From the NCBI RefSeq assembly GCF_007830175.1, contig NZ_VLKH01000004.1, positions 322,399-346,398 of the forward strand: a stretch of DNA of 24,000 bases, given 5' to 3'. Of the stretch, positions 1-23,031 are shown piece after piece; within the stretch, counting starts at the first letter, position 1; the number at the start of each line of letters is the position of its first letter. The stretch comes from Sedimentibacter saalensis (GTDB taxonomy: Bacteria > Bacillota > Clostridia > Tissierellales > Sedimentibacteraceae). The notes beneath the pieces were generated by a model, which was not told where the DNA came from, made no database searches, and was given only the letters and a program-made list of their open reading frames with translations. Both the position numbers and the translations under genes were made by a program.

Positions 1-1456
1 AGGATCCTTTTGAAACTTCATCTATCAGGTTTCGGTTTGTTGCCGAAATTACTCTCACATCCAGGTCTCTTTCAAAAGAACCGCCTATTCTCACAATTTT
101 ATTGTTGTCCAGAACCCTCAAAAGTTTTGGCTGTACTTCAAGAGGAACTTCACCTATCTCATCGAGAAAAATTGTTCCTCCATTGGCCAGTTCAAACTTG
201 CCCGGCCTTCCTCCCTTTACAGCCCCCGTAAATGAACCGCTTTCATATCCAAACAACTCACTTTCAAAAAGCTCCTTTGGAATGGCAGAGCAGTTTATAG
301 CAATGAATGGACCGCTGCTTCTGTTGCTTTCGTTGTGAATAGACTGGGCATACAGTTCCTTGCCTGTTCCGCTTTCCCCTTCAATCAAAACAGAACAGTT
401 TGTTTTAGAAATTTTCTTGGCAGTGCTTATGAGCTCATTCATTCTCACATCTGTTGTGACAATGCTGTCAAATGTATAGTTTGCATTAAATCCTGCAAGC
501 CTCATTACTTCCTTCCTCACCTGCTTTGCTTCCTTCATGAGCATTACGGCTCCTGTAACTTCATTGCCAACTGTTATTGGAGAAATGTTCAATGAACATT
601 CTATTTTTTTTGCTCCTATTGAAATTGTGTAATCAGAAAAACTCATTTTGTTTTTGTTTTCTAGAATGTTTTTTTGTATGTCAATTCCTTTGAATATTTT
701 TCCTATATCAATACTAAATATGTCTTCTTCCTCCATGTGGAAAAGATCCTTTATTTTATTGTTTATTCGCATTATGTTAAGAGAACTGTCAACAACCATT
801 ATACCATCGAGTATTGCATCAAAAGTTGTATCCATAAGATGGTATGATTCAGCAATCATAAGCTGTTTTTCAATGCAGTTTGCACTTGAAACCGCAATGC
901 CGTATGTATGTGTCTGCACATCTTTTGCACGGCCTGAAATGTCAAAGCATCCGATTACTTCTCCCTTGCTGTTGTGAATGGGTGCCGCAGAACAAGTCCA
1001 CTGGTGATGATATTCGCAGTAATGTTCAGGGCCCAGAACCTGTATGGGTTTGTCGGCAGCAAGACATGTTCCTATGGCATTTGTGCCCACGCTTTTTTCA
1101 TCCCACAGCGAACCCTTAACAAAATTTATGGTGTCGTGAATGTCCTTTATATCGCTGTTGATAATCAAATCTATGATTATTCCCTTTTCATCAGTAAGAA
1201 CTACGCTGTAACTTGTGGACTTAACCATTTCATAAACGTTTTCCATTATAGGACGGGTTAGCCTTATCATTTCTCTTTTGTTGTATATGCTTTTTTCAAG
1301 CACACCATCCTCAACCTTTGTTCCTTTTCCGGACTTATAATCAACGCCTAGCTTTTCGCACCTTTGCCATGATTCAAGGATATCAGTTTTAATATTTTCA
1401 AGAACAACTCCCTCTTCCACATATGACTGCCATTTTTTCCTTAATTCACTGAACAA
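1..1456 (-). CDS. sigma-54-dependent transcriptional activator (AcoR-like N-terminal sensor + AAA+ domain); C-terminal part lies outside the window
   Basis: Hand translation of the minus strand is open from a TTG at 1456 to the window edge (485 codons). An AAGGAG RBS lies 8 nt upstream (1465-1470). The translation contains Walker A GESGTGKE, the sigma-54 contact loop ESGSFTGA (a GAFTGA variant) and GGTIFLDEIGE (Walker B). The N-terminus SWQRCEKLGVD is typical of AcoR-type regulators. It is absent from the ORF track because there is no stop codon in the window. Confidence 0.85.
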   Translation of the reverse strand, partial: MFSELRKKWQSYVEEGVVLENIKTDILESWQRCEKLGVDYKSGKGTKVEDGVLEKSIYNKREMIRLTRPIMENVYEMVKSTSYSVVLTDEKGIIIDLIINSDIKDIHDTINFVKGSLWDEKSVGTNAIGTCLAADKPIQVLGPEHYCEYHHQWTCSAAPIHNSKGEVIGCFDISGRAKDVQTHTYGIAVSSANCIEKQLMIAESYHLMDTTFDAILDGIMVVDSSLNIMRINNKIKDLFHMEEEDIFSIDIGKIFKGIDIQKNILENKNKMSFSDYTISIGAKKIECSLNISPITVGNEVTGAVMLMKEAKQVRKEVMRLAGFNANYTFDSIVTTDVRMNELISTAKKISKTNCSVLIEGESGTGKELYAQSIHNESNRSSGPFIAINCSAIPKELFESELFGYESGSFTGAVKGGRPGKFELANGGTIFLDEIGEVPLEVQPKLLRVLDNNKIVRIGGSFERDLDVRVISATNRNLIDEVSKGS

Positions 1457-1500
1457 TTTATCATCTCCTTTATTTTTGGATGATTATGATTAGATGTATT

Positions 1501-1529
1501 ATGATAACATATTTATTCTTTGTGTTCAA
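1501..1529 (-). promoter_or_regulatory. putative sigma-A promoter for the sigma-54 activator gene
   Basis: On the minus strand: TTGAAC (1529-1524), a 17-nt spacer, then TATCAT (1506-1501). This lies about 45 nt upstream of the TTG start. Confidence 0.35.
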
Positions 1530-1600
1530 TCGTTTTCATAATCTGAATTATGACAAGGCACCAATATATTATGCATATGGAATTGCCGGGCTGAATCATG

Positions 1601-2092
1601 CTATTGCTCCATATTCATAAGTGTGCTCCATTTTATTCCGGTGCTTTTTTCATTTTGCATAACGCCTACCATCACTTCATCATTTTTTTCATCTTCAAAG
1701 TAATGCTCCAGTGCAAGCTTCAATACATCTATGAACTTGCGGTTCATTGCTTCCTGCTTTGGAATCCAGTGAAGTGATCCTTCGTCATTTTGCAAAACCA
1801 TTTTTGTATTTGTTCTTCCGAAATAAACATAATTTATTACCGTTTCATCCTTTTCTCTTCTTAAAAGCATGTACTTAAGTTTTAAATTTTCCACATTGTA
1901 ATCCTTTAAACCTGTCTCCTCATAAATTTCTCTTATGACTGCTGAATATGGATCATTTATTTCTTCCGGCTCAACATGTCCGCCCACTCCATACCAGAAG
2001 CCTGGCATACGCTTGTTTGTTTCTGACCTTTCCATCAGCAATACATCATCATTGTTCATTAAAAAAGCTGTTGCAATATTTCTGAATTTCAT
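1601..2092 (-). CDS. NUDIX hydrolase
   Basis: Nudix box GGHVEPE...REIYEETGL (REUxEExGU). RBS GGGGTGG lies just upstream of the ATG. The start is 11 nt downstream of the preceding gene's stop, so the two are likely co-transcribed. Confidence 0.85.
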   Translation of the reverse strand: MKFRNIATAFLMNNDDVLLMERSETNKRMPGFWYGVGGHVEPEEINDPYSAVIREIYEETGLKDYNVENLKLKYMLLRREKDETVINYVYFGRTNTKMVLQNDEGSLHWIPKQEAMNRKFIDVLKLALEHYFEDEKNDEVMVGVMQNEKSTGIKWSTLMNMEQ

Positions 2093-2103
2093 TTTCCACC
2101 CCG

Positions 2104-4548
2104 TTAATCAACCGACACTTCAAGAATAGCGCCGTTTTCTATGAGAATTTTTTTAAGAATTTCTGTATCCACATGCTGCACAGCAGTGTCTTTGTCAATC
2201 GCCATGGAAGCTGCAATTCCTGCGGCTTCACCCATTATCATGTATTGAGGCTCCATTCGAAGTGATGAATACGCAATGTGGCTTGCAGACACACAAACCG
2301 TAACAATAAGATTATCTGCTTCTGAAATTTTAGGCATCATAACCCTGTATGGAATCTGATAAGGAGTAACTGGAATTTGCAGTTCTCCTTCGTTTTGAAC
2401 ATAGCCATCCAATGTGAGATATCTTTGGACGTTGTGAGAATCTATGTTGTAAGAACCCATACCAATGGCATCAAACTTTAATTTATCATGTCGAACATCT
2501 CGTTCTGTCATGACATAATCACCCACCATGCGCCTTGCTTCTCTTATGTAAAGCTGGTACGGCCAATAATCGTTGTCAACAAATTCATCCCCCGCATAAC
2601 CCCACTTCTTAGCATCCGCTCTGAGTTCTGCCGGTACAGCTTCATCATTTGTCACAAAATATAACAGCCCCTGAATATACTCTTTATGTTCTTTTCTGAT
2701 TTCTTCCCTTTGCTGGTAATCAGCTTCAGGATACAGATAGCTCCCTCCTATGTAATCTGTGGAAAATGGTCCTGAATTATTTATGTCATACTTGTTGTTA
2801 GGCAATGGTCCAAAAAATATAATATCTGAAAATTTTATGCTTCTTCCTTCACTTTCCTTTAAGAAATTAAGCCAGGCCGCAACGAGCAGATATCTTTCCC
2901 TTCTGTAGTTTTCAGGCTTTGAAAATGGAACCTGGTTGTTTGGATTGTTTGTTAGGCACAATCTGTAATTGTATGATTGCACAATCTCATCACCGCTGCC
3001 TGCTGGTCCCGGAAGCCTGGTGGAAATTTCTTCATATAAGGTTCCATTTTTATCAAAAGCCTTTAGGTTATAATAAAAATTATTTCTCCCAAGAGGAGGA
3101 AGAACCCCTGCAAAACTTTCCTGGTAAACATCATTGCTTTCCCTGCCCACTGTATATGATACGCTTGATTTTGCCATGAGATCGCCTTCATAGGTGCTGT
3201 CGATAAAATTCTGAGCATAAAATAATAAGCCGTCCAGCATTTCAATGCTTAATATGGAAGTTCCGTCTTTTTTCACACCGCCTTTTTCCTTTAGAAGGCT
3301 GTTAAAATAAACATGGATGTTTTCCTCCTGCAGCATTTTTTTAAAAATCAGTTCTGCAACATGTGGTTCGTAAAACCAGCTTATTTTTTTGCTGTAATGC
3401 CTTCCTGCCAATTCAAAAAATTCTTTTGTCATTCCTCCTATTACTTTTATGTTTCCGTGATCCGTGTAGCTTAAGCCCCCGGAAACCATGCCGCCTAAGT
3501 GAGACGTCTGTTCTATGAGTGCAACATCCTTTCCTTCTCTTGAAGCAGAAACTGCTGCCATAATCCCCGAAGCTGTTCCTCCGTAAACAACAACATCATA
3601 AAAAAGAGGATACCTTACAAAGTCAACCTTCATTGGCTGCTGCCTGAGCTTTATGTTTGAAGACTTGTAGTCCTCATCATCAACAGTGAACCGTACCTGT
3701 TCCGTCCCGAAAAATCTCCCAAAAGTATTTGTTAAGCTCTGAAGAATCATTCCTTCATGCATGGCTTCCACATTCATGCCGCTAAGAAATTCCATGCTCA
3801 AATCGATGTGAAGTGTATGGTCCATATCCATGTCAAGCTTGTTAATGCGGCTATTTTTGGGAAGCACCCTCACATTACCCTTAACAACATCATAGTAGGC
3901 AGAAGTAAACACTTCCTCTGTTATATCATTTGTACTGAATTCTATTTTTTCTGAAACATTTCTTATTTTCATATCTTTTAGGTCAGGAAAATAAAAATTG
4001 ATTTCTTCAGTCAGTTTGTAGTTCCTTTTAATTTCACTTAAGTAATAAGTATTTTGAGTTATTTTTGCATTGTCTTTAAAATCAGATGAAGCTTCCTCGC
4101 TTATGACAATAGATTTCACAAGTCCCACTCCCTTGGCGTAATATTCAACAGTCCTTTTGTTATCCCATACGGTAGTAACCTCTACTGCACTGTACATCTC
4201 GATTGGAGTAGAAACCATTGCAGTTGTTGAAGTAATTGTTCTGACGCCTCCTCCGTTTACAGACCAATGTCTTCCTTCTTCTATTGGACCCATCATAAGA
4301 ATTTCCATATTACCTGGATAGTTCATGAGATTTTTTCTGAAATAACTTTCTTCCTGTGATAATTTCATCATTGCCTTATTGTCTGAAACCTGAATTACTG
4401 AAATATTCACTTCATCAGCATATTTTGTTCGTAACTGCATCATGTCTTCACTTACATAATCTATAGTCATTTCATAAATTTCATCATTTTCTGCTGTAAT
4501 GTAAGTATACTTTGTATCCTTCAAAACAGGAAAGTAATCAATGACCAT
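2104..4548 (-). CDS. multidomain protein: N-terminal unknown domain + GerMN-like domain + C-terminal FAD-dependent oxidoreductase (PF12831-like)
   Basis: Dinucleotide-binding motif DVVVYGGTASGIMAAVSASREGKDVALIEQTSHLGGM. The central segment (INFYFPD...LHIDLSMEF...VRFTVDDE) resembles GerM/GerMN. The reading frame continues upstream to an ATG at 4704 but is broken by a TAA at 4630-4632 (see next feature and findings). Confidence 0.8.
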   Translation of the reverse strand: MVIDYFPVLKDTKYTYITAENDEIYEMTIDYVSEDMMQLRTKYADEVNISVIQVSDNKAMMKLSQEESYFRKNLMNYPGNMEILMMGPIEEGRHWSVNGGGVRTITSTTAMVSTPIEMYSAVEVTTVWDNKRTVEYYAKGVGLVKSIVISEEASSDFKDNAKITQNTYYLSEIKRNYKLTEEINFYFPDLKDMKIRNVSEKIEFSTNDITEEVFTSAYYDVVKGNVRVLPKNSRINKLDMDMDHTLHIDLSMEFLSGMNVEAMHEGMILQSLTNTFGRFFGTEQVRFTVDDEDYKSSNIKLRQQPMKVDFVRYPLFYDVVVYGGTASGIMAAVSASREGKDVALIEQTSHLGGMVSGGLSYTDHGNIKVIGGMTKEFFELAGRHYSKKISWFYEPHVAELIFKKMLQEENIHVYFNSLLKEKGGVKKDGTSILSIEMLDGLLFYAQNFIDSTYEGDLMAKSSVSYTVGRESNDVYQESFAGVLPPLGRNNFYYNLKAFDKNGTLYEEISTRLPGPAGSGDEIVQSYNYRLCLTNNPNNQVPFSKPENYRRERYLLVAAWLNFLKESEGRSIKFSDIIFFGPLPNNKYDINNSGPFSTDYIGGSYLYPEADYQQREEIRKEHKEYIQGLLYFVTNDEAVPAELRADAKKWGYAGDEFVDNDYWPYQLYIREARRMVGDYVMTERDVRHDKLKFDAIGMGSYNIDSHNVQRYLTLDGYVQNEGELQIPVTPYQIPYRVMMPKISEADNLIVTVCVSASHIAYSSLRMEPQYMIMGEAAGIAASMAIDKDTAVQHVDTEILKKILIENGAILEVSVD

Positions 4549-4629
4549 GTCAATTTGAGTATGTGGTTCCTGATCATCAGACTCTGAAACCTCTCCCGTA
4601 TCTTCTATTTGTTCCTTCAGATAAATTTC

Positions 4630-4704
4630 TTACATGGAATATAAAAGAAAAGCAAAAGCTATAGTAATTACAAAGATAACAACTCCTCGAACGTTTTTTT
4701 TCAT
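4630..4704 (-). pseudogene. stranded signal-anchor mini-ORF (24 aa), in frame with the 2104-4548 ORF and separated from it by a single TAA
   Basis: The minus strand reads GGGGTGATTTA-ATG AAA AAA AAC GTT CGA ... TCC ATG TAA, giving MKKNVRGVVIFVITIAFAFLLYSM*. The ATG at 4704 is 156 nt (52 codons) upstream of the ATG at 4548, in the same frame. The sequence between them (EIYLKEQIEDTGEVSESDDQEPHTQID) looks like a linker. Confidence 0.6.
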
Positions 4705-4801
4705 TAAATCACCCCTTTTGATGCCTTACTATATTTATACCTTTCATTTAAAATAATAAACCACTAATGAAATTATTTTTTATGGTAATTAAAAATTATT
4801 G

Positions 4802-4830
4802 TTTACATTTTAACGAATAAATGTTAATAT
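4802..4830 (+). promoter_or_regulatory. putative sigma-A promoter with extended -10, driving the plus-strand RNA element
   Basis: TTTACA (4802-4807), a 17-nt spacer, then TGT-TAATAT (-10 at 4825-4830). The region is AT-rich, so chance matches are possible. Confidence 0.4.
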
Positions 4831-4836
4831 ATTTTT

Positions 4837-5030
4837 AATTAAATATTTTGTATATTAATTTTGCGAAATTGATTTTCCTAAAGCACAAGCCATGGATGCA
4901 ATTCGTTAGGGTATAGCTGGAAACGTCTATGCCTCCCGTTGGAAAGTAGAATTAATTGCAGAGGTAATTTTTGTACTTTTATGTACCATTACATCTACAA
5001 TTGCATCTTTCTCGGGAAAGATGTTTTTTT
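4837..5030 (+). ncRNA. candidate structured RNA (riboswitch-like leader or sRNA) of unknown class
   Basis: Hairpin 4910-4933 (GGUAUAG/CUAUGCC plus UG/CG) is capped by a GAAA tetraloop. Its two U-G pairs only work on the plus strand. TGCAATT (4897-4903) can pair with AATTGCA at 4954-4960. Alternatively, as GATGCAATT (4895-4903), it can pair with AATTGCATC at 4999-5007, which overlaps the terminator stem. A second hairpin lies at 4964-4994. The element ends in the intrinsic terminator at 5004-5030. Confidence 0.4.
5004..5030 (+). terminator. rho-independent terminator (plus strand)
   Basis: CATCTTTC-TCGG-GAAAGATG forms an 8-bp stem, followed by seven T residues. Confidence 0.65.
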
Positions 5031-5158
5031 ATTTATATAAAATATTTATAAAATGAAGGCAGCTGTTGACAAAGATATCCTCCCCGGATAATTTAATTTC
5101 GTTGTAGGGAAGTCGCGTCTCCTTACACTTTATTGCTGTCCTTCATTTTATTTTTGGG

Positions 5159-5181
5159 AAAAAAAAGACCGCATTGCGGCC
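5159..5181 (-). terminator. rho-independent terminator downstream of the vWA gene
   Basis: The minus strand reads GGCCGC-AAT-GCGGTC followed by TTTTTTTT. It begins 12 nt after the vWA stop codon. Confidence 0.6.
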
Positions 5182-5192
5182 TTCATAGTTAT

Positions 5193-5843
5193 TTACTTCC
5201 TTCCCCTTTTGTTGTAATCCATTTCTATTTCGCTCTTCCAGTCTGCTTCAACTTTCTTCCCTTTTCTGAAATTGCTAACGGCTTCACTTACAACTTTATA
5301 ATTAAGCATTGTTCCTTCCGAATCAGGGCAGAAATTTGCTGCACGTTCTTCATCAATTCCAAGGTTTAAAGCAGTTTCAGCCGCATCTATGTTTGCACCA
5401 AGGAATATGAAGTCCCATGCGTATTTTGACTTCTTAAGCTCAATCATGTCCTTGATTTTCCTGAACGTGAATTCCTTGCTTGAATTTTCCATTCCATCTG
5501 TGATTATTACAAAAATCACTTTGCCCGGTCGGAACTGTTCACTTGATTCTGAAATTGACTTTGAGATTCTGCTTATGGTTCTTCCAATGGCATCAAGAAG
5601 AGCCGTGGAGCCACCTACAAAATATTCCTCTTGGCTTAAAAAGTTTACATTTTGTATGTTCAATCTTTCGTGGAGCAGTTCATAATTGTTGTCAAACAAA
5701 ACCGTTGTCACAAGAGCTTCTCCTTCTTCTTTTTTTTGTCTCTTAAGCATTGAATTGAAGCCTCCTATTGTGTCCTGTTCGAGTCCGGACATAGAACCGC
5801 TTTTGTCAAGTATGAACACCATTTCAGTTAAATTATTTTTCAT
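5193..5843 (-). CDS. von Willebrand factor type A (vWA) domain protein, small cytoplasmic type
   Basis: MIDAS motif VFILDKSGSMSG (DxSxS), plus GGSTALLDAIG and VIITDGMENSS. RBS GGAGGG lies upstream. Confidence 0.85.
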   Translation of the reverse strand: MKNNLTEMVFILDKSGSMSGLEQDTIGGFNSMLKRQKKEEGEALVTTVLFDNNYELLHERLNIQNVNFLSQEEYFVGGSTALLDAIGRTISRISKSISESSEQFRPGKVIFVIITDGMENSSKEFTFRKIKDMIELKKSKYAWDFIFLGANIDAAETALNLGIDEERAANFCPDSEGTMLNYKVVSEAVSNFRKGKKVEADWKSEIEMDYNKRGRK

Positions 5844-5880
5844 TTTTACCCTCCATTCATTTGTTAATATGAGGATAACA

Positions 5881-5916
5881 TTTTAATAAAATAAAAGGTC
5901 GCTTTAAAAGCGACTT
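5881..5916 (-). terminator. hairpin plus T-tract downstream of the macro-domain gene
   Basis: On the minus strand a 7-bp stem (5916-5910 with 5902-5896, one G-U pair) is followed by TTTTATTTTATT. The stem overlaps the macro gene's TAA stop. Confidence 0.5.
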
Positions 5917-6925
5917 ATACTCCAAGCAAGTTTTGATCAAATGCAAACAATGCCTCATTTATTTCAAATATGTTGTAAATTTCTTCCTCAATAAAATATT
6001 CCACAATTATGTCAAACTTGCTGCTGTGGGAAAGTGCATATCCTGCCCTTCGGAGCAAATCCTTTGTTTCATCAATGCCCAGCTCCAAAGAAACAGCAAG
6101 CGCCAGGACAGTTGACTTTCTCGGACTGTAGTCCTTGTCGGTTCTGATTTTTGAAAAAAGCTTTCTGTCTATGTTGGCTTTTTTGTATGTTTCAACATCT
6201 GTCTTTCCCTTTTCGTCAATTATGCGAAGAAGCATCTGAGAAAAAGTTTCGTCAAGTTCCGTAACAACATCTTCAAGTTTTCTTATGCCTTTAGCCGGAG
6301 CTACTTCATATTCCTTAAGACTCGGAATTTCCAGTCTGTCTTCCTGAACCTCAAAGCTTTGAATTTTTCTGTAGTGGTCACTTTCAAATTTATCCCGGAC
6401 GTATTTGTCGTCTATGTACTCTTCTATAGACTTGTACAACTTTTCGCTTAAATCAAGGGCTTTCTTGTCAAACACCGCAAGGTAGACAGTCATGTCATTT
6501 TCAAGGAGAAATTCCTGGATTGCTGCCATGGCAACCCTTAATGCCTTGTCCTTTGGATAACCATAAATGCCTGATGAAATCAGAGGAAAAGCAATGGATT
6601 GGAGATTATTCTCCTTTGCAAGATTAAGAGAATTTAAATAACAGTCTCTTAAATGCTTTTCTTCACTGAAGTTTCCACCTTGCCATATGGGGCCCACTGT
6701 ATGGATAATATATTTTGCAGGAAGTGCATATCCTTTTGTAATAACTGCTTCACCAACATCACAGCCGCCTATGGAGTCGCATTCCTTTTGCAGTTCTTCC
6801 ATTCCAGCAGCATTAAAAATTGCGCCGCACACACCACCGCCCATTTTAAGCCTTGTGTTAGCTGCATTTACTATAGCATCAACATTCATTTTAGTAATAT
6901 CATTTCTGATAATTTCAAATGGCAT
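5915..6925 (-). CDS. macro domain (ADP-ribose binding/hydrolase) protein with a C-terminal HTH-like domain
   Basis: The N-terminus NDITKMNVDAIVNAANTRLKMGGGVCGAIFNAAG...AFPLISSGIYGYP is a canonical MacroD/YmdB-type signature. C-terminal residues around 225-330 (FSQMLLRIIDEKGKTDVETYKKANIDRKLFSKI...STVLALAVSLELGIDETKDLLRRAGYALS) look like an XRE-type HTH fold. Confidence 0.85.
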   Translation of the reverse strand: MPFEIIRNDITKMNVDAIVNAANTRLKMGGGVCGAIFNAAGMEELQKECDSIGGCDVGEAVITKGYALPAKYIIHTVGPIWQGGNFSEEKHLRDCYLNSLNLAKENNLQSIAFPLISSGIYGYPKDKALRVAMAAIQEFLLENDMTVYLAVFDKKALDLSEKLYKSIEEYIDDKYVRDKFESDHYRKIQSFEVQEDRLEIPSLKEYEVAPAKGIRKLEDVVTELDETFSQMLLRIIDEKGKTDVETYKKANIDRKLFSKIRTDKDYSPRKSTVLALAVSLELGIDETKDLLRRAGYALSHSSKFDIIVEYFIEEEIYNIFEINEALFAFDQNLLGV

Positions 6926-6949
6926 AGTTACTCCCTTCTGCTTATAGCA

Positions 6950-7438
6950 TTACTGGTATATGCTGTTTAAAAAACTTTTTCCAGTCTTTGTCCTGAAATA
7001 CTTTTGCTCAATTATCTCTGTCTGTTCTTTTTGTATATTTTCTTCAAAAATGTTTACCAGAAAATCTGCTTCCACAAGTATTTGAAAATCAATTCCGTCT
7101 ATTTTGCTGTATGTATGGTGATTGCCTATTAAAAACTCAATTCTTTCTTTTATGTCTTCGCTTAAATTGAATTTAGCCATGATTTCCCTTGCGGCAGGTG
7201 GTCCTTCAATTTCCTGGTAAATTCCTGCCGAAGAAGAATATTTTCTTTCGCTTTCCTTTATTCCAATGTCGTGCAAAATTGATGAAATTTCAAGAGCTTC
7301 CTGTTCTTCCTTTGAAATTTTTTCAAGTTCTCCTATGCTTTTGGCATAGGCGTACACCTTCAGTGCGTGGTTTATTCTTACTGCATCTTTTTCAAAATAT
7401 TCAATCATCTTTTTCATTATTTTGCTTACATTATTCAA
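6950..7438 (-). CDS. HD-domain metal-dependent phosphohydrolase
   Basis: H...HD pattern (INHALKVYAYA..., ISSILHDIGI, LIGNHH). TTG start with an AGGTGA RBS 4 nt upstream. Confidence 0.7.
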   Translation of the reverse strand: MNNVSKIMKKMIEYFEKDAVRINHALKVYAYAKSIGELEKISKEEQEALEISSILHDIGIKESERKYSSSAGIYQEIEGPPAAREIMAKFNLSEDIKERIEFLIGNHHTYSKIDGIDFQILVEADFLVNIFEENIQKEQTEIIEQKYFRTKTGKSFLNSIYQ

Positions 7439-7461
7439 TTTATCACCTGCCGATTTATGAA

Positions 7462-7983
7462 TTACAAATCCATGACCATTGTGTAGAGATTGTGTGTTTT
7501 TTTCTTGTAATCCCTTTTTGCTTCTTTAACTTTTTTATAACCAAGAGATGACCAGAACATTACACCGTTAGTGTTTTCCTCTACTGCACCAAGCCTAAGC
7601 ATTTTTGCTCCTGAATTTATTGCCAGATTTTTAACTGCATCATGTGACATCCTGCCCAGACCATTTTTCCTTTTCTCAGGATCTATGAACATGAGTCCGA
7701 TTATCCATGAATCAGGTTCAGGATAATTTTTCACAACTTCTATAAGTCCTGAAAGTTCATTTTCAGCACTAAAAATTCCAACAACAAATTTATCCTCGTA
7801 AGTGTTGTTTGGAGGAAGAGATGTGAAAATTTCCACTGCATCCTCATAATCCGGATATGTTCCGTCATGGAGAAGGTAATAGTCTGAGCACCTTTTGCAC
7901 AGTCCATATACCTGATTAATGTTGTCTTTTTCATGCATCGTTTTTACTTTATATCCGTTTTTTAAATCAATGCTGATTTCCAT
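7462..7983 (-). CDS. GNAT family N-acetyltransferase
   Basis: Acetyl-CoA binding motif-A-like segment IDPEKRKNGLGRMSHDAV, with a C-terminal FWSSLGY. RBS GAGGGG. Confidence 0.8.
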   Translation of the reverse strand: MEISIDLKNGYKVKTMHEKDNINQVYGLCKRCSDYYLLHDGTYPDYEDAVEIFTSLPPNNTYEDKFVVGIFSAENELSGLIEVVKNYPEPDSWIIGLMFIDPEKRKNGLGRMSHDAVKNLAINSGAKMLRLGAVEENTNGVMFWSSLGYKKVKEAKRDYKKKTHNLYTMVMDL

Positions 7984-8070
7984 ATTCCCCTCATAATTAT
8001 TCTAGTTTTCGTGGCGGTATCATAGTTAGCGGTTCTAAAAAACACCATGAACAATCTGCAACGAAACAAA

Positions 8071-8787
8071 TTATTCTTCATTCCACTGCTTCACAAGAGC
8101 CACTGCATAATCCTTTTCAATTTTAGATACTTCCTTGTTGTCTATGAGTGCTTTCAGCTTGTCATCACGTACCCATTTGCACATTTCTCTGCTGTAACCG
8201 TAATAATCGTGCTCGTTTGTCTTAACAATAAGCTCTTTGTTTTTGTCAATATAATATGTTGCAAACAAATCAGCATAAATGTCTGTAAATTCCCAGTACA
8301 TTTCATAGTCAAACAACGGTTCAAAAACATCAAGAAGTTCTCCGTAGTACCAGCTTTGTTTTTCCTTTGGTCTGTTAAAACGGGTCCATACTTCTTCCTG
8401 CATAACAGCATAATCTGCCTTAATGCTTCTTAAATTTGAAAGCTTGTCGGCCAGAGCCAAAAGCATAACATCCATATCCGCTTCCCTGCCAAGGTAATCA
8501 ATTGTGTGCTGCTTTCTTACTTCCCATGATTTTGACTTATCTTCTGAACAAGCAGCTACAATTGCTGCAACTTCACTTCCAAATTCTCTTTCAATGTCGT
8601 CTATTTCAACATGGGTGTCTTCCACAGTGTCATGGAGAAGTCCAGCAATTATGAGATTTTTGCTGCATTTGTTTTCTGTGAGTATGTGGGCAACCTCAAA
8701 TGGATGCACTATGTAAGGAGCATCTGAGCCTTTCCTTACCTGGTTTCTGTGAGCTTTCGCTGCAAATTCAATAGCTTTATGTATCAT
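8071..8787 (-). CDS. RelA/SpoT-type HD hydrolase, (p)ppGpp hydrolase-like (small alarmone hydrolase family), with a C-terminal extension
   Basis: AIEFAAKAHRNQVRKGSDAPYIVHPFEVAHIL...IIAGLLHDTVEDT matches the HD_4/SpoT hydrolase signature. There is no synthetase domain. Confidence 0.8.
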   Translation of the reverse strand: MIHKAIEFAAKAHRNQVRKGSDAPYIVHPFEVAHILTENKCSKNLIIAGLLHDTVEDTHVEIDDIEREFGSEVAAIVAACSEDKSKSWEVRKQHTIDYLGREADMDVMLLALADKLSNLRSIKADYAVMQEEVWTRFNRPKEKQSWYYGELLDVFEPLFDYEMYWEFTDIYADLFATYYIDKNKELIVKTNEHDYYGYSREMCKWVRDDKLKALIDNKEVSKIEKDYAVALVKQWNEE

Positions 8788-8821
8788 TTTATCACTCCGA
8801 AATTTTTATAATTTTTATATT

Positions 8822-9322
8822 TTAACCGACTTGAAGGACATTGTTCTTTGAAAGCCATTCCTGCAAGGGCCTAATTAATTCTTCCTGTTTAAGCACTTCC
8901 TTCATCTTCGACTGAACATAAAAAACATCAGCAATATTTCCGCCTTTTCTTTCAATGCGCTCAGTCATTGATTTAATAACTGCTGTTGGTTCCTTTTCAT
9001 CAGCCAGCGTCAGGAATATATAAACATTCTTATTTTTAAAATTCATGCTGTGAATGATGGAATTTAAAGGCGTTGAACTGTGGCCTGCCCACACCTGGCC
9101 TCCAATAAAAATATTGTCATAGCCGTCATCATTCAAATCCGTGCTTTTGATTTTGCCTTTAAGCCCAATTATTGATGAAAATGCTGCCCATGCAAAGCCT
9201 GCTGCTTCCGGTTCCTTGACCATTTCGATTTTTTTAAGCTCCCCTCCGGTCAAATTTGATATTTCCTTTGCCACAGCTTCAGTATTGCCGCTTAAGGTGT
9301 AATAAACAACTAAATTCTTCAT
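8822..9322 (-). CDS. flavodoxin-family protein
   Basis: N-terminal FMN phosphate-binding loop VVYYTLSGNTEAVAKEIS. RBS GGAGGAG. Confidence 0.7.
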   Translation of the reverse strand: MKNLVVYYTLSGNTEAVAKEISNLTGGELKKIEMVKEPEAAGFAWAAFSSIIGLKGKIKSTDLNDDGYDNIFIGGQVWAGHSSTPLNSIIHSMNFKNKNVYIFLTLADEKEPTAVIKSMTERIERKGGNIADVFYVQSKMKEVLKQEELIRPLQEWLSKNNVLQVG

Positions 9323-9402
9323 TGCTCTCCTCCATTATATTGAGACTGTATCAAAATTTCCTTCTGCATTGCAATAGCTGTAAAATATTGTATCCTATTC
9401 TA

Positions 9403-9430
9403 TTATTATCTCTAATTTCTTTCTTGTCAA
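9403..9430 (-). promoter_or_regulatory. putative sigma-A promoter for the flavodoxin-to-macro gene run
   Basis: On the minus strand: TTGACA (9430-9425), a 16-nt spacer, then TAATAA (9408-9403). Confidence 0.4.
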
Positions 9431-9482
9431 CAAAAAGGCTTAAATTCTTAAATATTTGCAAAGAATATTTTAGTTTTAATTG

Positions 9483-9511
9483 TTGAAAATATATACTGTT
9501 AATGATATACT
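9483..9511 (+). promoter_or_regulatory. putative sigma-A promoter for the DUF1846 gene
   Basis: TTGAAA (9483-9488), a 17-nt spacer, then TATACT (9506-9511). RBS AGGAGA at 9531-9536. Confidence 0.45.
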
Positions 9512-9544
9512 CTTCTTCATGTATAAAACGAGGAGAACTTATTT

Positions 9545-11029
9545 ATGAAAATTGGATTTGACAACAATAAATACTTAAATATGCAATCTGAACACATTAA
9601 AGAAAGAATTGCACATTTTGACAATAAGCTTTATCTTGAATTCGGCGGGAAATTATTTGACGATTACCATGCATCAAGAGTGCTTCCGGGCTTTCTGCCG
9701 GACAGTAAGCTGAAAATGCTGTCTCAGCTCAAAGACCAGACAGAAATTATCATTGCCATAAATGCCGATGCAATAGAAAGCAACAAAATCCGAGGAGATT
9801 TGGGAATTACTTATGACGATGATGTTTTTCGTCTTATAGATGCATTCCGCAACATGGGATTTTTTGTGGGAAGTGTTGTTATAACTCAATACACAGAAGG
9901 CGCTGCAACAAAACAGTTCCGCCGCAAGCTTCATGAACTGGACATCAAATCATATCTTCATTACAAAATAGAAGGGTACCCAAGCAACATTAAACTCATT
10001 GTAAGCGATGAAGGCTATGGCAAAAATGATTATATCGAAACTGAAAGACCTTTAGTTGTTGTAACCGCTCCGGGACCTGGAAGCGGAAAGATGGCAACAT
10101 GTCTTTCACAGCTTTACCATGAAAACAAGCGCGGTGTGAAGGCTGGATACGCAAAGTTTGAAACTTTCCCTATCTGGAACCTGCCTCTTCACCATCCGGT
10201 TAACATAGCATACGAAGCAGCAACAGCAGACCTTAACGATGTTAACATGATTGACCCGTTTCATCTGGAAGCATACGGCAATCCTACAGTAAATTACAAC
10301 AGAGATATTGAAATATTCCCTGTATTAAATGCAATATTTGAAAGTATTTTTGACAAGAGCCCTTATAAGTCCCCAACAGACATGGGTGTTAATATGGCAG
10401 GAAACTGTATCACTGACGACCAGGTGTGCAAAGATGCTTCCAAACAGGAAATCATAAGAAGATACTACCAGGGCCTTTGCGACATAAAAAGAGGACGCTG
10501 CTCAAAAGATGTTCTTTACAAATTGGAACTTCTCATGAAACAAGCAGGAGTTTCGGAAAGTGACCGCAAAGTTGTTGAACCTGCACTCAAGCGTGAAGAA
10601 GAAACAGATTATCCGGCAGTTTCCATAGAACTTCATGACGGTCAGATTGTAACAGGCAAGACTTCAGATTTGCTTGGAGCTTCAGCAGGAGCTCTTTTAA
10701 ATGCCATAAAAACTCTTAGCGGAATTGATGATGAAGTTCACCTTGTTTCTCCTGAAGCAATAGAACCTATTCAAACATTGAAAACTTCTTTTCTGGGAAG
10801 CTGCAATCCAAGACTTCATACAGATGAAATATTGATTGCACTTTCTGTGAGCGCTGCAAACAACCCGGAAGCAAGACTGGCACTTGAACAGCTTCCTAAT
10901 TTAAAAGGCTGTGAAGTTCATTCAACAGTGCTTCTTTCATCTGTTGATGAGCAAATATTCAAGAAACTTGGAGTTCATCTAACTTGTGAGCCTAAATACG
11001 AATCCAATTGCATATACCATAAACATTAA
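9545..11029 (+). CDS. UPF0371 / DUF1846 family protein
   Basis: Full-length similarity, from memory, to the streptococcal/clostridial UPF0371 family: LYLEFGGKLFDDYHASRVLPGF, VVTAPGPGSGK, GYAKFETFPIWNLPLHHPVNIAYEAATADLNDVNMIDPFH, NYNRDIEIFPVL. Confidence 0.9.
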   Translation: MKIGFDNNKYLNMQSEHIKERIAHFDNKLYLEFGGKLFDDYHASRVLPGFLPDSKLKMLSQLKDQTEIIIAINADAIESNKIRGDLGITYDDDVFRLIDAFRNMGFFVGSVVITQYTEGAATKQFRRKLHELDIKSYLHYKIEGYPSNIKLIVSDEGYGKNDYIETERPLVVVTAPGPGSGKMATCLSQLYHENKRGVKAGYAKFETFPIWNLPLHHPVNIAYEAATADLNDVNMIDPFHLEAYGNPTVNYNRDIEIFPVLNAIFESIFDKSPYKSPTDMGVNMAGNCITDDQVCKDASKQEIIRRYYQGLCDIKRGRCSKDVLYKLELLMKQAGVSESDRKVVEPALKREEETDYPAVSIELHDGQIVTGKTSDLLGASAGALLNAIKTLSGIDDEVHLVSPEAIEPIQTLKTSFLGSCNPRLHTDEILIALSVSAANNPEARLALEQLPNLKGCEVHSTVLLSSVDEQIFKKLGVHLTCEPKYESNCIYHKH

Positions 11030-13955: not shown

Positions 13956-15653
13956 TTAGTTTAAATCAAGCATATTTCTATTATTACTAAGCATTCTAAT
14001 AAACTCTTGAACCATGTCCGGATCAAACTGCGATGAACTGCACGTTATCAGTTCCTCTACTGCCTGCTCATAGGTTTTTCTTTTGTGATATGGCCTGTTT
14101 GAAGTCATGGCATCAAAACTGTCAGCCACACTTAGTATCCTCACAAGATAAGGTATTTCATCTCCCATTAATCCTTTAGGATATCCTGTTCCGTCATACC
14201 ATTCATGATGGTGCAATATAAGAGGCAGCACTTCACTTAGAGCAGTAACAGTCCTTACAATCTGTGCTCCGTTTTCAGGATGTGTCTTGAGCAGATTCCA
14301 CTCCTCATCTGTAAGCACGCCTATTTTGTTTAATACATCCTTGCTTATTTGAATTTTTCCTATATCATGTAGATACGCTCCATACCTCAATGTCTTTCTG
14401 TCATTGTCAGAAAGATTGAGATGGTTTGCCATAAGTTCGCAGTAAATAACTACTCTGTCTGTGTGAGCATATGTGTAACGGTCCTTTGCATTGATAACAC
14501 TTATTAGAGTTTTTATGGAACTTATTAAATCAATATGTTTTTCGTCAATATCCTCTTTCAATTCTTCCAACACTGAATAATAACTTTCAACTCTGTTTTT
14601 ATTGAAAAACTTTGCCCTGTACAAAGCATCATCAGCAGTATTGATTAGTTCTTTTTTGTTTTTAGCCTTTATGGGATAACATGAAACACCTATAGAAATA
14701 GTCAAATTTCCGTTAGGTTGATTTTCTTCACCTTCAAAATGTGTGTTTTCTACAGCATCTCTTAATCTGTTTCCTATTTCAACAGCTTCTTCCTCGCAGG
14801 TATCCGGCAATATAATTGCAAATTCTTCACCGCCGTATCTAGCAATCACATCATTTTCTCTTACATTTTTTTTGAATATTTCTCCGAACTTATTCAGCAC
14901 AACATCACCTGCACTATGGCCATAAAGATCATTGTAATATTTGAAATGGTCAATATCAATGAATAAAAGCCCCAGTACCTTATTTGACTTGTCTGCTTCA
15001 TGAATGTGCTCGGACAATGAATTTTGGAAATATCTGTGGTTGTATACGCCGGTCAACTCGTCAATATTTGCCAGATGCAATGTATTTTCTCTGTGCTGGT
15101 TTTCAAGTTTCACATAATAACCCAAAAGCCATGCCATTATCACAAATACTCCTGACAGCACCAAATCTGCTTCAAAATATTTGTTAACACCGGTTTTATA
15201 CCCCAGTAAATCTATTATCAAAATAGCAACAGAGCTTATGACAGCAGTTGTTATGCCAGTATTGAAGCCATATTGAATTGTATTTGCAATTATTATAAAT
15301 AAATACAGGAATTTGTACTGGCTTTCATGGAATCCTGATATACAAATCAGTCCTGTATATATGGCCATAAAAACTACACTTTCTATGAGGCTGCTTATAT
15401 TATACACTTGTTCAATCTGATCTTTTTTAAAACTGTGCAGCCATCCCTCGCATATGAGAACAAAAATTCCAAACCCTATGAAGTTTAAGGCAACAATGTT
15501 ATTTCCAATTGTATTGCTCACCCACGACATCATATAAAGGTTTTCTGGAAATTGTGTAAATATAACAATACCACATATCAAAAGAGAAATGAGCTTTAAT
15601 ACAGACAACATGTCGTATAATTTTTGTTTTCTATTTATGTCAATTTGCATCAT
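13956..15653 (-). CDS. polytopic membrane protein with GGDEF diguanylate cyclase and HD-GYP phosphodiesterase domains
   Basis: The N-terminal 190 aa or so contain about 5-6 hydrophobic helices. The GGDEF domain has an intact GGEEF motif and an RxxD I-site (VRENDVIARYGGEEF). The HD-GYP domain has HTDRV, YLHDIGK and HHHEWYDGTGYP. The start is placed at the ATG at 15653, with an AGGTGA RBS 5 nt upstream; the GTG at 15662 lies inside that RBS. Confidence 0.85.
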   Translation of the reverse strand: MMQIDINRKQKLYDMLSVLKLISLLICGIVIFTQFPENLYMMSWVSNTIGNNIVALNFIGFGIFVLICEGWLHSFKKDQIEQVYNISSLIESVVFMAIYTGLICISGFHESQYKFLYLFIIIANTIQYGFNTGITTAVISSVAILIIDLLGYKTGVNKYFEADLVLSGVFVIMAWLLGYYVKLENQHRENTLHLANIDELTGVYNHRYFQNSLSEHIHEADKSNKVLGLLFIDIDHFKYYNDLYGHSAGDVVLNKFGEIFKKNVRENDVIARYGGEEFAIILPDTCEEEAVEIGNRLRDAVENTHFEGEENQPNGNLTISIGVSCYPIKAKNKKELINTADDALYRAKFFNKNRVESYYSVLEELKEDIDEKHIDLISSIKTLISVINAKDRYTYAHTDRVVIYCELMANHLNLSDNDRKTLRYGAYLHDIGKIQISKDVLNKIGVLTDEEWNLLKTHPENGAQIVRTVTALSEVLPLILHHHEWYDGTGYPKGLMGDEIPYLVRILSVADSFDAMTSNRPYHKRKTYEQAVEELITCSSSQFDPDMVQEFIRMLSNNRNMLDLN

Positions 15654-15680
15654 TTTTATCACCTGCTTTGCATGTCCAAT

Positions 15681-15706: not shown

Positions 15707-15842
15707 ATTCTTCTCTTAATGATTTAGGTTCTTCTGGCTGATACATTCCCCACCAGCAAGCTGAAGCAGTAGTTGTTGTAGCTAAAAATGACAACATTAC
15801 AGCTGCTAAAGTCATAACCTTCAATACTAGACCTTTTTTCAT
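15705..15842 (-). CDS. agrD: AgrD-type cyclic (thio)lactone autoinducing peptide precursor, 45 aa; not in the supplied ORF track
   Basis: Hand translation gives MKKGLVLKVMTLAAVMLSFLATTTTASACWWGMYQPEEPKSLREE. It has an amphipathic/hydrophobic leader, a single Cys followed by 4 residues (CWWGM), then an acidic YQPEEPKSLREE tail typical of clostridial AgrD. Its ATG overlaps the agrB TGA stop (ATGA at 15842-15839). Confidence 0.8.
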   Translation of the reverse strand: MKKGLVLKVMTLAAVMLSFLATTTTASACWWGMYQPEEPKSLREE

Positions 15843-16510
15843 TTGTTCGCCCTCCTATTTAGTATAGTCGTACCCCCCATAAACGTATCTAAAGATTCTA
15901 TAATTATGTGTCCAAGAGATACCAAAGTTATAGATTGCCATAAAATACCTGTGGATATACATACGGCAACAGTTAAAAAATTAATGTTATTTGTAAGTAC
16001 ATAAGCATATGTCATAACTATGTTTACAGCCAACATGCTTAAAGTAAACATCAAAGACTGCTTTTTAAGTCGTTTTCTTTTATCCGGATTTTTTAATGGT
16101 TTGTTGACACTGCCAACAGGACAATATTTAATCATAACATAGAAAACAAAAGCAAACTCTAATGCCATTAATCCAATTAAATATACAAATTCAATATTAA
16201 TCATCAGATGTTTTACCAAAAGTCCAAGAACACAAAATATAATCATTCCAATAACAGCACAGTTCAATGGTTTAGTTGCATGGACTCCGCCTGAAAACTT
16301 CCTTAAAATTGCCGCTGCAAAGGAAATAATCATAGATTCAGCAAAAACCCCTAACAAAAGACCAAAAGCAGCAATTGCAAAAATAGACAATACAGTCTGA
16401 ATTAGTGCAAACGCTCCGTAGGCAATAACCTCTTCCTGGTCATGTCCAAGGGATAAATTTGAAGAAACAACTGAAGCAAAGGATTTAGAAACCTTGTCAA
16501 TCCAACTCAT
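15839..16510 (-). CDS. agrB: AgrB, accessory gene regulator B (membrane peptidase that processes AgrD)
   Basis: Polytopic membrane protein with LRKFSGGVHATKPLNC. The catalytic His and Cys are 7 residues apart, as in staphylococcal AgrB (H77/C84). RBS AGAGGA. Confidence 0.85.
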   Translation of the reverse strand: MSWIDKVSKSFASVVSSNLSLGHDQEEVIAYGAFALIQTVLSIFAIAAFGLLLGVFAESMIISFAAAILRKFSGGVHATKPLNCAVIGMIIFCVLGLLVKHLMINIEFVYLIGLMALEFAFVFYVMIKYCPVGSVNKPLKNPDKRKRLKKQSLMFTLSMLAVNIVMTYAYVLTNNINFLTVAVCISTGILWQSITLVSLGHIIIESLDTFMGGTTILNRRANK

Positions 16511-18479: not shown

Positions 18480-19862
18480 TTATAACATCAATGAAATATT
18501 CTTAATTTCATCATTTATTTCCTTGTAGCTCTTGCCTGTTATGTTGCATATGTTTTTTACATCTTCATATTCAGGCTTACAAAACACATTTCCTTCATAG
18601 CTGCTAACTTTTACTTTAACAGGACCATACTTTGTTTCCACTTCTATTATTTCCCTGTTAAGAACAGTCCTCTCAGTCCTGTATCTTCTGATACCAATAG
18701 TTGTTGTGTTGTTAAATATTACAGATTCCATTTTTCTAATGTCATCTTCTTTGCATATTACTGTCAGTCTGTAAGCCGGTCTGCTTTTTTTCATGTAAAT
18801 TGGAGTGAAGAAAACATCGCTTGCTCCGTCTTCAAAAAGTTTCTCCATTGTGAATGACAGACTTTCTCCCGTAGAATCATCAATGTTTGTTTCAAGCACC
18901 CACATATATTTATTTCCTTGGCAATGATGCATGTCTGTTTCTGATTGTTCATTTGATTCTTCAATCAGATAAGTTCTGAGCACATTTGCTTTGTCAAAAT
19001 CTTTTTTACCGGCACCTGTTCCAGTTTTCTTGATGGTGTAGGATAGAGGCAGAGAATCCATAGTCTTAATAGCCGCTGCTATTGCTGCTCCTGTAGGTGT
19101 TATCATTTCGCCCCTGGCTTGTGTTATTCTTATGGGCAGAGAATGTTCTGCTGCAATGTTTACGACCGCAGGAACAGGAACAGGAATTATGCCGTGTTGG
19201 CATTTAACATGACCTCTTCCTTCATACAGTTCAGAAACCACTACATCATCAATTTTAAGGTTATCTATTAATATGGCCAAAGCAACAATGTCAACTATGG
19301 AATCAACTGCTCCCACCTCGTGGAAATGAACTTCTGAAACTCCAAGACCGTGAGCCTTTGCTTCTGCTTCTGCCACAACCTGGAAAATCTTTCTGGAAAT
19401 TGATTTTGCTCTGTTTGTAATTTTTGATTCATCAATTATTTTTAATATATCGACTATGTTTCTGTGTTCATGGTAATGATGTGCATGTTGTCCATGACTG
19501 TCATCTGCTTCTTGATAATGTTCATGGTGGTCATGATCATATGAATGACAGTGGCCGTTTTCTATTTCATGTCCATGACTGTGCTCGTGATGATGTTCAT
19601 GGTCATGATGGTGTTCATGGTCGTGATGGTGCTCATGTTCGTGATGGTGCTCATGCTCTTGTTCTAAAACAACATTAAAATCACATGCATCTATGCCACA
19701 TTTCTTTGTTCTTCCTATTTCTATGCTGTATCCGTCTACATTCAGACTTCTCAATCCTTCCATCATCACTTCCCTGTCACCGCCCAGATCAAGAAGGGAT
19801 GCTACAGTCATATCACCGCTTATTCCTGAATAACATTCCATATACAAAATTCTTTTGCTCAT
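18480..19862 (-). CDS. larC: LarC, nickel-pincer cofactor nickel-insertion protein (DUF111 family), single fused ORF with a long His-rich insert
   Basis: The N-terminus YMECYSGISGDM is typical of LarC/DUF111. A His-rich tract spans residues 67-133. The C-terminal LarC2-like region is present in the same frame. Confidence 0.9.
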   Translation of the reverse strand: MSKRILYMECYSGISGDMTVASLLDLGGDREVMMEGLRSLNVDGYSIEIGRTKKCGIDACDFNVVLEQEHEHHHEHEHHHDHEHHHDHEHHHEHSHGHEIENGHCHSYDHDHHEHYQEADDSHGQHAHHYHEHRNIVDILKIIDESKITNRAKSISRKIFQVVAEAEAKAHGLGVSEVHFHEVGAVDSIVDIVALAILIDNLKIDDVVVSELYEGRGHVKCQHGIIPVPVPAVVNIAAEHSLPIRITQARGEMITPTGAAIAAAIKTMDSLPLSYTIKKTGTGAGKKDFDKANVLRTYLIEESNEQSETDMHHCQGNKYMWVLETNIDDSTGESLSFTMEKLFEDGASDVFFTPIYMKKSRPAYRLTVICKEDDIRKMESVIFNNTTTIGIRRYRTERTVLNREIIEVETKYGPVKVKVSSYEGNVFCKPEYEDVKNICNITGKSYKEINDEIKNISLML

Positions 19863-20605: not shown

Positions 20606-20621
20606 CTTAACCTCTTTTATT

Positions 20622-21434: not shown

Positions 21435-21447
21435 AATTCCTCCCATG

Positions 21448-23018: not shown

Positions 23019-23031
23019 TTGTCTGTCCCGG

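Follow-up and report, generated by a model that had tools for sequence, protein, structure and literature searches.

At positions 4802-5031 of the Sedimentibacter saalensis window, as the whole stretch of 24,000 nucleotides (nt) analysed here is called, the plus strand carries a structured RNA with a promoter ahead of it and an intrinsic terminator at its end, all of which are present as described in a sequence-only reading of this DNA. The RNA lies between a divergent FAD_oxidored/Germane gene and a convergent vWA gene. It can be assigned with confidence to the molybdenum/tungsten cofactor (Moco/Tuco) riboswitches, Rfam family RF01055, as a P3-less member with a terminator/antiterminator platform. 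The open reading frame (ORF) tables contain no credible plus-strand gene behind the terminator; after the riboswitch, the plus strand of the window is gene-free for 4.5 kb, and the next gene on it is that of a DUF1846 protein with its start at 9545, so that the orphan status claimed for the RNA stands. The parts of the riboswitch are the following.

4802-4830, plus strand: sigma-70-type promoter with an extended -10 (-35 TTTACA, 17-nt spacer, TG, -10 TAATAT)
4849-4965, plus strand: Moco/Tuco aptamer without P3, from the covariance-model match to RF01055
4854-4864 with 4946-4956, plus strand: helix P1, from the pair list of the family model
4867-4871 with 4899-4903 and 4876-4878 with 4894-4896, plus strand: helix P2, with the receptor-like CCUAAAG...CAUGG
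4895-4903, plus strand: switching strand (GAUGCAAUU), including the P2 3' strand, with 4999-5007 as alternative partner
4909-4934, plus strand: helix P4, a GAAA-capped hairpin
4935-4942, then GGAAAG, plus strand: helix P5, from the pair list of the family model
4966-4998, plus strand: linker between aptamer and terminator, variable through substitutions and indels, serving as an internal near-neutral control
4999-5031, plus strand: expression platform, in which the antiterminator 3' strand 4999-5007 overlaps the intrinsic terminator
5003-5011 with 5016-5024, then U7, plus strand: stem of the intrinsic terminator, poor in G+C and well formed

Transcription would start near 4837, as inferred from the sequence. 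The hairpin at 5003-5024 with its T-run is the sole plus-strand terminator call within 4400-5400, where 0.3 calls are expected from shuffled sequence, and the folding of 4836-5035 has a z-score of -2.85 relative to shuffles. The orientation that had been deduced from the G-U pairs is borne out, those in P1, P4 and the terminator all agreeing with the plus strand.

When the whole window was compared with Rfam at gathering thresholds, RF01055 was the single match. It covers 4849-4965 on the plus strand at 52.6 bits (gathering score 36, E 3.7e-10) and extends over model positions 1-135 of 135. All strongly conserved blocks of the family are matched (CCUAA, AUGG, AGGG, the GGAAAC tetraloop hairpin, CCUCCCGU and UGGAAAG), the conserved CCUCCCGUUGGAAAG core is present, and the structure comprises P1, P2 with its tetraloop receptor, P4 with the GAAA loop, and P5 in the form CCUCCC...GG followed by GGAAAG. 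The GAAA-capped hairpin seen in the sequence-only reading corresponds to P4 of the Moco motif. P3 is cleanly deleted, model positions 59-73 missing in the alignment and the rest of the aptamer being intact; the copy lacks the hallmark of the P3-bearing, Moco-sensing subgroup and has that of the P3-less, putatively Tuco-sensing one. P3 is missing in 58 of 176 Moco RNA representatives, and this type is near-perfectly correlated with tungsten-cofactor metabolism (Regulski et al. 2008, PMC2408646). Because of that correlation, and by analogy through it alone, the tungsten cofactor (Tuco) would be the likely ligand. Routine in-line probing is precluded by the instability of the cofactor (PMC2408646). 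At eight other loci, copies reach 49.9-55.5 bits with the RF01055 model, the orphan copies equalling the operon-linked ones, and across these 9 sequences 97.4% of the cells of the aptamer pairs, the 4909-4934 hairpin included, are paired. A permissive Rfam search of 4560-5260 yielded nothing credible besides RF01055, the similarity to STnc540 at 5156-5206 being mere terminator-hairpin similarity. The new ligand-sensing class that had been entertained, to be abandoned in the event of a confident match to a known family, is abandoned with the match to RF01055.

The expression platform consists of a terminator and a coupled antiterminator. Segment 4895-4903 is a perfect 9-bp complement of 4999-5007 (duplex energy -9.4 kcal/mol), as had been noticed, and the helix takes 5 nt of the terminator 5' arm, not 4 as first counted. 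The other pairing proposed for this segment, with 4954-4960, holds as far as complementarity is concerned, which extends over 4897-4903, but it is not the helix that closes the aptamer, since 4946-4956 forms the 3' side of P1, opposite 4854-4864. The unconstrained minimum free energy structure of 4849-5031 is the family aptamer plus the terminator (-42.6 kcal/mol), and enforcing the antiterminator on the same stretch gives -38.9 kcal/mol, about 4 kcal/mol worse. Homologues were collected and inspected for covariation, as had been suggested. Across the 9 sequences, 98.8% of the cells of the antiterminator helix are paired, and in the most distant copy, L105, the change of A to G at 4901 is accompanied by U to C at both of its partners, 4869 in P2 and 5001 in the antiterminator. 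This linked change is the pattern expected of a partner-swapping strand, albeit in a single sequence; together with the alternative pairings it supports the aptamer/antiterminator/terminator arrangement that the sequence-only reading had put forward. The RNA is designed, by its sequence, as an OFF switch. With the cofactor bound, P2 and P1 would retain 4895-4903, the 5003-5024 hairpin would form, and transcription would stop near 5031 to give an RNA of ~195 nt. With the cofactor absent, 4895-4903 would pair with 4999-5007, the terminator would be blocked, and transcription would read on.

In its P1/P2/P4/P5 architecture, its GAAA tetraloop with the receptor-like CCUAAAG/CAUGG, its intrinsic-terminator platform and its lack of P3, which it has in common with the 58 representatives mentioned above, the RNA is a regular member of its family. 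It departs from the family in drawing its antiterminator from the P2 3' strand and not from P1. The usual targets of Moco/Tuco riboswitches are molybdate/tungstate transporters, molybdopterin biosynthesis genes and Moco/Tuco enzymes, whereas the copy in the window has no gene behind it and the copies in its relatives precede an operon for SLH/Big_5 proteins and a BtuCDF/Fhu-type importer. No gene for molybdenum or tungsten transport, for molybdopterin, Moco or Tuco synthesis or for a cofactor-dependent enzyme lies downstream in the window.

The origin of the orphan state can be followed in the relatives, which were gathered by scanning metagenome contigs with the sequence of an RNA element downstream of the terminator and, further ones, through the vWA and Big_5 proteins (loci are designated by L numbers; L098 and L100, high-GC chance matches from the metagenome pattern scan, were discarded). 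The vWA protein of the window is 100% identical to one listed by NCBI under Sedimentibacter saalensis. An identical vWA protein is encoded on 16 metagenomic contigs, 10 places of which were retrieved; these have the same gene order where the contig reaches and are 100% identical over their covered part of 4700-5200. An orphan riboswitch without a gene behind it is also found in three more distant alleles, L012 (Sedimentibacter sp. bin122), L095 and L096. Five operon-bearing loci (L099, L101, L103, L104 and L105) have the same divergent FAD_oxidored/NUDIX flank, and in L101 the convergent flank with vWA and macro is shared as well. Behind the riboswitch and its terminator, all five have AGGAGG and the ATG of an SLH gene, which opens a six-gene operon encoding, in this order, an SLH/Big_5 surface protein, a Big_5 lipoprotein, a FecCD permease, an ABC ATPase, a Peripla_BP_2 protein and a 248-amino acid protein, with the ~110-nt RNA element between the first two genes. 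The operon occupies 140-5294 (minus strand) in L099, 10709-16601 (minus) in L101, 4581-10519 (plus) in L103, 4574-10516 (plus) in L104 and 4601-10518 (plus) in L105. By blastn, window positions 4700-5032 correspond to L099 5449-5121 and L101 16750-16422, and the stretch from 5039/5054 to 5127 corresponds to L099 4062-3968 and L101 15373-15299. The S. saalensis layout is thereby the ancestral one minus ~1.05 kb (SLH), minus ~4.5 kb (Big_5 to the 248-amino acid protein) and minus a small trim after the element. The remaining features of the locus are listed below.

5032-5049, plus strand: deletion junction 1, where relatives hold the ribosome-binding site AGGAGG and the SLH gene, ~1.05 kb
5050-5155, plus strand: three-way-junction RNA element (closing helix P1 5050-5063 with 5135-5149; U-run 5146-5155)
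5076-5090, plus strand: hairpin 1 of the element, loop UCCCC
5103-5127, plus strand: hairpin 2 of the element, loop AGUCGCGUC
5156-5163, plus strand: deletion junction 2, where relatives hold the Big_5, FecCD, ABC ATPase, Peripla_BP_2 and 248-amino acid protein genes, ~4.5 kb
5164-5184, minus strand: terminator hairpin of the vWA gene; read in the plus direction it is without a good U-tract in the window
5193-5843, minus strand: convergent vWA (YegL-like) gene, the right flank, common to the operon-bearing L101
5915-6925, minus strand: macro gene, between the riboswitch and the DUF1846 gene
2104-4704, minus strand: divergent FAD_oxidored/Germane gene, the left flank, common to all operon-bearing relatives

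Both coding blocks are missing in S. saalensis and in the three related alleles, and both junctions are common to all four; what is left in these deletion alleles is the riboswitch, the terminator and the ~100-nt three-way-junction RNA. Both coding blocks of the operon were deleted in this lineage, and it can be stated with confidence that the orphan state arose by loss of the riboswitch's own operon. Neither this origin nor the second structured RNA behind the terminator figured in the sequence-only reading. The ancestral operon was already convergent with the vWA gene and ended at a bidirectional terminator. In the more distant loci L092 and L093, other genes lie between the vWA and FAD_oxidored genes and the riboswitch is absent; in Tissierella and still more distant FAD_oxidored loci (L013-L090, with L013-L016 checked), there is no Moco riboswitch at this position.

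The element that was spared between the two deleted blocks has a fold z-score of -2.67 and is present in all 10 loci, with one copy per locus. Its consensus of 10 sequences comprises 22 pairs, 3 of which are changed on both sides, and a compensatory exchange of A-U and G-C in the closing helix P1 occurs within the deletion group. Several of its variants are G-U pairs, which on the opposite strand would appear as C-A mismatches, and they fit the plus strand. The loops and upper stems are invariant between deletion-group and operon-borne copies. In intact operons the element lies between the SLH and Big_5 genes (L099 3925-4085, minus strand, and the equivalent gaps of L097, L101, L103, L104 and L105). 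There it has an extra outer helix, AACAUAUU pairing with AAUAUGUU, which leads directly into U7 some 50 nt before the Big_5 ribosome-binding site, and its UCUCCU strand is complementary to that site, AGGAGA. The operon-borne element looks like a second cis-regulatory RNA and is a candidate attenuator or aptamer.

A permissive search of 4560-5260, of 5030-5175 and of the operon-borne L099 copy assigned no Rfam family to the element. TwoAYGGAY (RF01731) resembles it in the long closing helix round two hairpins and in a few unpaired bases (ACA..., GCGUC), but the match reaches 20.7 bits where the gathering score is 43 (E 0.53, 206 nt searched). The hairpin loops of the element read UCCCC and AGUCGCGUC; AYGGAY loops, by which the family is defined, are either missing or without conservation, and membership was rejected. 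Two coding interpretations were likewise discarded. A 12-codon ORF at 5053-5091 shows conservative changes in L012 but has no Shine-Dalgarno sequence and is interrupted in operon-borne copies, and a 78-amino acid ORF with TTG start at 5133-5369 overlaps the terminator and the antisense strand of vWA and is broken by indels in relatives. An independent promoter of the element is conceivable, -10-like TATAAT strings lying just upstream; there is no convincing -35, and the region is AT-rich. Between the CCUCCCC loop of the element and the neighbouring FAD_oxidored ribosome-binding site, just 4 contiguous pairs were found by eye.

Conservation since the operon loss was assessed within the deletion alleles, which form two groups, the window with L095 and L012 with L096; divergence was compared between the groups. 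The linker and junction 1 differ at 22-28% of aligned bases, with indels, as opposed to 6-8% for the structured parts (Fisher one-sided p 1e-3 to 5e-5). Over its 117 nt the aptamer has 3-6 differences (3-5%), far from the rate of its unconstrained neighbours, and the downstream element 10-13 in ~95 nt (11-14%); the terminator has 0-2 in 33 nt (0-6%) among the deletion alleles. The aptamer differences in orphan alleles are found in the P2 loop and outside P1, or else turn a G-U pair into A-U. The promoter region aligns across all relatives, and in L012 and L095 the -35 and the TG are unchanged, with TACTAT or TATCAT as -10. Four-fold degenerate sites of the flanking genes differ by 21-48%; they were kept as support only because the locus genealogies are incongruent, the internal linker and junction control being the main test. 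Conservation of the remnant since the operon loss can be claimed with confidence at the sequence level, and as the aptamer, terminator and element core were conserved while their non-structural neighbours diverged, the remnant would appear to be functional and under selection.

The reading favoured here, with a probability of roughly 0.55, is that the remnant would be a functional cofactor-gated non-coding RNA, made in a short form at high and in a long form at low cofactor. A terminator-type riboswitch is followed by non-coding sequence and not by an ORF. After the operon loss, the switch would read only into the formerly intercistronic ~100-nt element at 5050-5155, and read-through at low cofactor would yield an RNA of ~320-360 nt carrying the three-way junction. 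In L012 and L096, where a terminator on the riboswitch strand follows the element, the read-through RNA would for this reason be discrete, at ~360 nt. The long form might pair with mRNAs via its C-rich/UCUCC loops, bind a protein, or be antisense to vWA. A more specific version, that selection would have kept the riboswitch to gate a small regulatory RNA whose low-cofactor form acts in trans in a cofactor-sparing manner, with Shine-Dalgarno regions or a binding protein as conceivable targets, is put forward tentatively.

Several points weigh against the favoured reading. A target or partner of the long RNA did not turn up. Conservation is lower in the element (11-14% differences) than in the aptamer; against the operon-borne copies its divergence is 20-30%, the lower stem of its second hairpin (P3) is remodelled, and all this may mark early decay and not adaptation. 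The control regions are short, with 59-60 nt, and the window and L095 are only 8% apart in linker and junction, so this pair carries no signal. Furthermore, the FAD_oxidored gene tree does not group the deletion alleles, which are not monophyletic in it: the gene of the window is 94% identical at the nucleotide level to that of the operon-bearing L099, and the genes of the other deletion alleles are 83-85% identical to it, no nearer than those of other operon-bearing lineages. The incongruent genealogies indicate recombination, or a presence/absence polymorphism of the operon, among close Sedimentibacter. As the locus recombines, gene conversion from functional copies could mimic retained function, and selection merely against unlocking of the terminator could do the same.

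It is on these points that the main rival builds, according to which riboswitch, terminator and element are functionless leftovers that stay similar through gene conversion or through selection against read-through into the vWA operon. The clear deletion origin, the genealogies that indicate recombination, the closeness of the window and L095 alleles throughout, the 20-30% distance of the element from operon-borne copies with loss of its extended lower stem, and the absence of a found target all fit such an inert relic, and a fresh nonsense mutation in the FAD_oxidored gene of this strain shows that local gene decay occurs. We nevertheless judge it rather unlikely. In the same alleles, the 3-5% of the aptamer and the 0-6% of the terminator stand against the 22-28% of the adjoining linker and junction; the promoter was retained, although its loss would be the simplest way of silencing a useless unit; the changes in orphan-allele aptamers are all in loops or pair-improving; the closing helix of the element underwent a compensatory change within the deletion group; and the RNA structures were spared by each of three separate deletions. 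If instead the terminated ~195-nt RNA were itself active as a trans-acting small RNA and the downstream element irrelevant, aptamer and terminator would be expected to be the most conserved parts, as they are, and SreA of Listeria would be a precedent (PMC8079631). No complementary target was identified, and both the sparing of the element by the deletions and its P1 change would be left unexplained; this reading is regarded as very improbable.

That both the vWA and the macro gene are on the minus strand, read-through being antisense to them, was correctly stated in the sequence-only reading, and a conditional antisense regulator was one of its proposals: at low cofactor, read-through past the element would repress vWA/macro by antisense pairing or transcriptional collision. 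Several features of the locus suit this. The vWA gene starts 40 nt past the element on the opposite strand, neither the window nor L095 has a plus-strand terminator call after 5031, and the vWA hairpin lacks a U-tract in the riboswitch direction in L095 as well; AspocR of Listeria, under a B12 riboswitch, provides the precedent (PMC8079631). The proposal is weakened by L012 and L096, where a true bidirectional terminator at the vWA-hairpin site, good on the riboswitch strand, stands between the element and vWA. In the window, UUUUAUUUUU comes directly after the long P1 of the element, with the vWA terminator hairpin next; the ancestral operon with its bidirectional end was convergent with vWA already, and nothing evident connects the vWA, macro, HD and GNAT genes with a molybdenum or tungsten cofactor. 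Conditional antisense regulation is regarded as improbable. As to the idea of a new riboswitch class for some unknown ligand, the full-length RF01055 match far above threshold, with every conserved core nucleotide in place, and the orthologous copies ahead of an operon with a standard ribosome-binding site leave it a negligible chance; being a standard Moco/Tuco riboswitch, the candidate is not worth pursuing as a new ligand sensor.

For the favoured cofactor-gated RNA, riboswitch-gated non-coding RNAs are known in AspocR, Rli55 and SreA (PMC8079631). Among working analogues, the B12 riboswitch with Rli55 in Listeria or EutX in Enterococcus comes closest, AspocR and SreA being less close. There, too, a terminator-type riboswitch stands before non-coding sequence, and the ligand gives rise to a short RNA of ~200 nt while a longer RNA with an extra structured module is made without it, as is proposed for the window. 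The Rli55 module, however, is a known ANTAR-type site that sequesters EutV, whereas that of the window is a three-way junction without ANTAR-like hexaloops; also, the ligand class is another one, and the arrangement in the window arose through deletion of coding genes. With AspocR the window shares a riboswitch pointing at convergent genes, for which read-through would be antisense, but a terminator separates the RNA from the convergent gene in its sister alleles, and a link between vWA/macro and the cofactor is not evident. A riboswitch aimed at convergent genes is also found at the ubiG operon of Clostridium acetobutylicum, where an S-box riboswitch controls an antisense RNA. The trans-acting S-adenosylmethionine riboswitches SreA/SreB of Listeria are comparable in that the terminated RNA of the window could act as a small RNA; SreA still controls its own downstream operon in cis, while the window riboswitch has none and no target pairing was found.

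The RNA class at this locus is known; what is unusual is that the riboswitch is orphaned yet constrained, that an uncharacterised motif lies between genes of the ancestral operon, and that the ancestral regulon is atypical. If the more specific, trans-acting version of the favoured reading is true, this would be the first known Moco/Tuco-class riboswitch controlling a non-coding RNA, and a regulatory RNA born from the leader and an intercistronic region of an operon. The locus offers a clean natural example in which a riboswitch has survived its operon and yet is apparently constrained, which bears on the origin of RNAs like Rli55 and AspocR, and it has brought up a narrow, structurally supported intercistronic motif without an Rfam family that survives operon deletions. 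As for the operon, its importer is a BtuCDF/Fhu-type ABC system with a Peripla_BP_2 protein that is weakly IsdE/Fhu/BtuF-like, and the 248-amino acid protein has weak similarity to the TiaS TCKD domain and to 'methanogenesis marker 11'. By its predicted components, the importer is not an oxyanion transporter of the ModABC, TupABC or WtpABC type, and its substrate may be a chelated metal or a pterin-like compound; a cofactor riboswitch ahead of such an importer and of SLH/Big_5 proteins in Sedimentibacter hints at uptake of this kind.

On the left flank, regulation of the divergent FAD_oxidored gene by the riboswitch was considered and judged unlikely, the upstream region of this gene (4730-4779) being conserved even in the riboswitch-less L093; a further counterpoint is L103, where a transposase lies between gene and riboswitch. 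This rve-family transposase of 442 amino acids is encoded at L103 2967-4295 (minus strand), and the FAD_oxidored protein there is shortened to 819 amino acids. In most strain contigs, such as L001, the intact FAD_oxidored/Germane protein has 866 amino acids with an N-terminal hydrophobic segment. In the window, codon 25 carries a TAT-to-TAA nonsense mutation (4630-4632, minus strand), and the remaining ORF of 814 amino acids starts from 4548; in L006 the gene is also called at 814 amino acids. In Tissierella creatinini (L013), a Clostridiales-2 RNA (RF02937, 73.5 bits) at 14053-14132 on the plus strand lies ~1.6 kb downstream of the FAD_oxidored homologue and has no counterpart in the window.

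On the minus strand beyond the macro gene follow genes for HD, GNAT, HD_4 and flavodoxin proteins. Farther on, at 18480-23925 (minus strand), LarC-like (Ni_insertion), LarB-like (AIRC) and LarE-like (PP-loop) genes adjoin an energy-coupling factor metal transporter of the CbiM/N-Q-O type. Together they look like a nickel-pincer cofactor cluster with its own nickel/cobalt uptake, unrelated to the riboswitch. An AgrB homologue is encoded at 15839-16510 (minus strand), with an ORF of 45 amino acids just downstream (L001 2-139, L002 96-233) that is likely to encode an AgrD-type autoinducing-peptide precursor; the gene of a GGDEF plus HD-GYP-type protein (13956-15662) adjoins the two.

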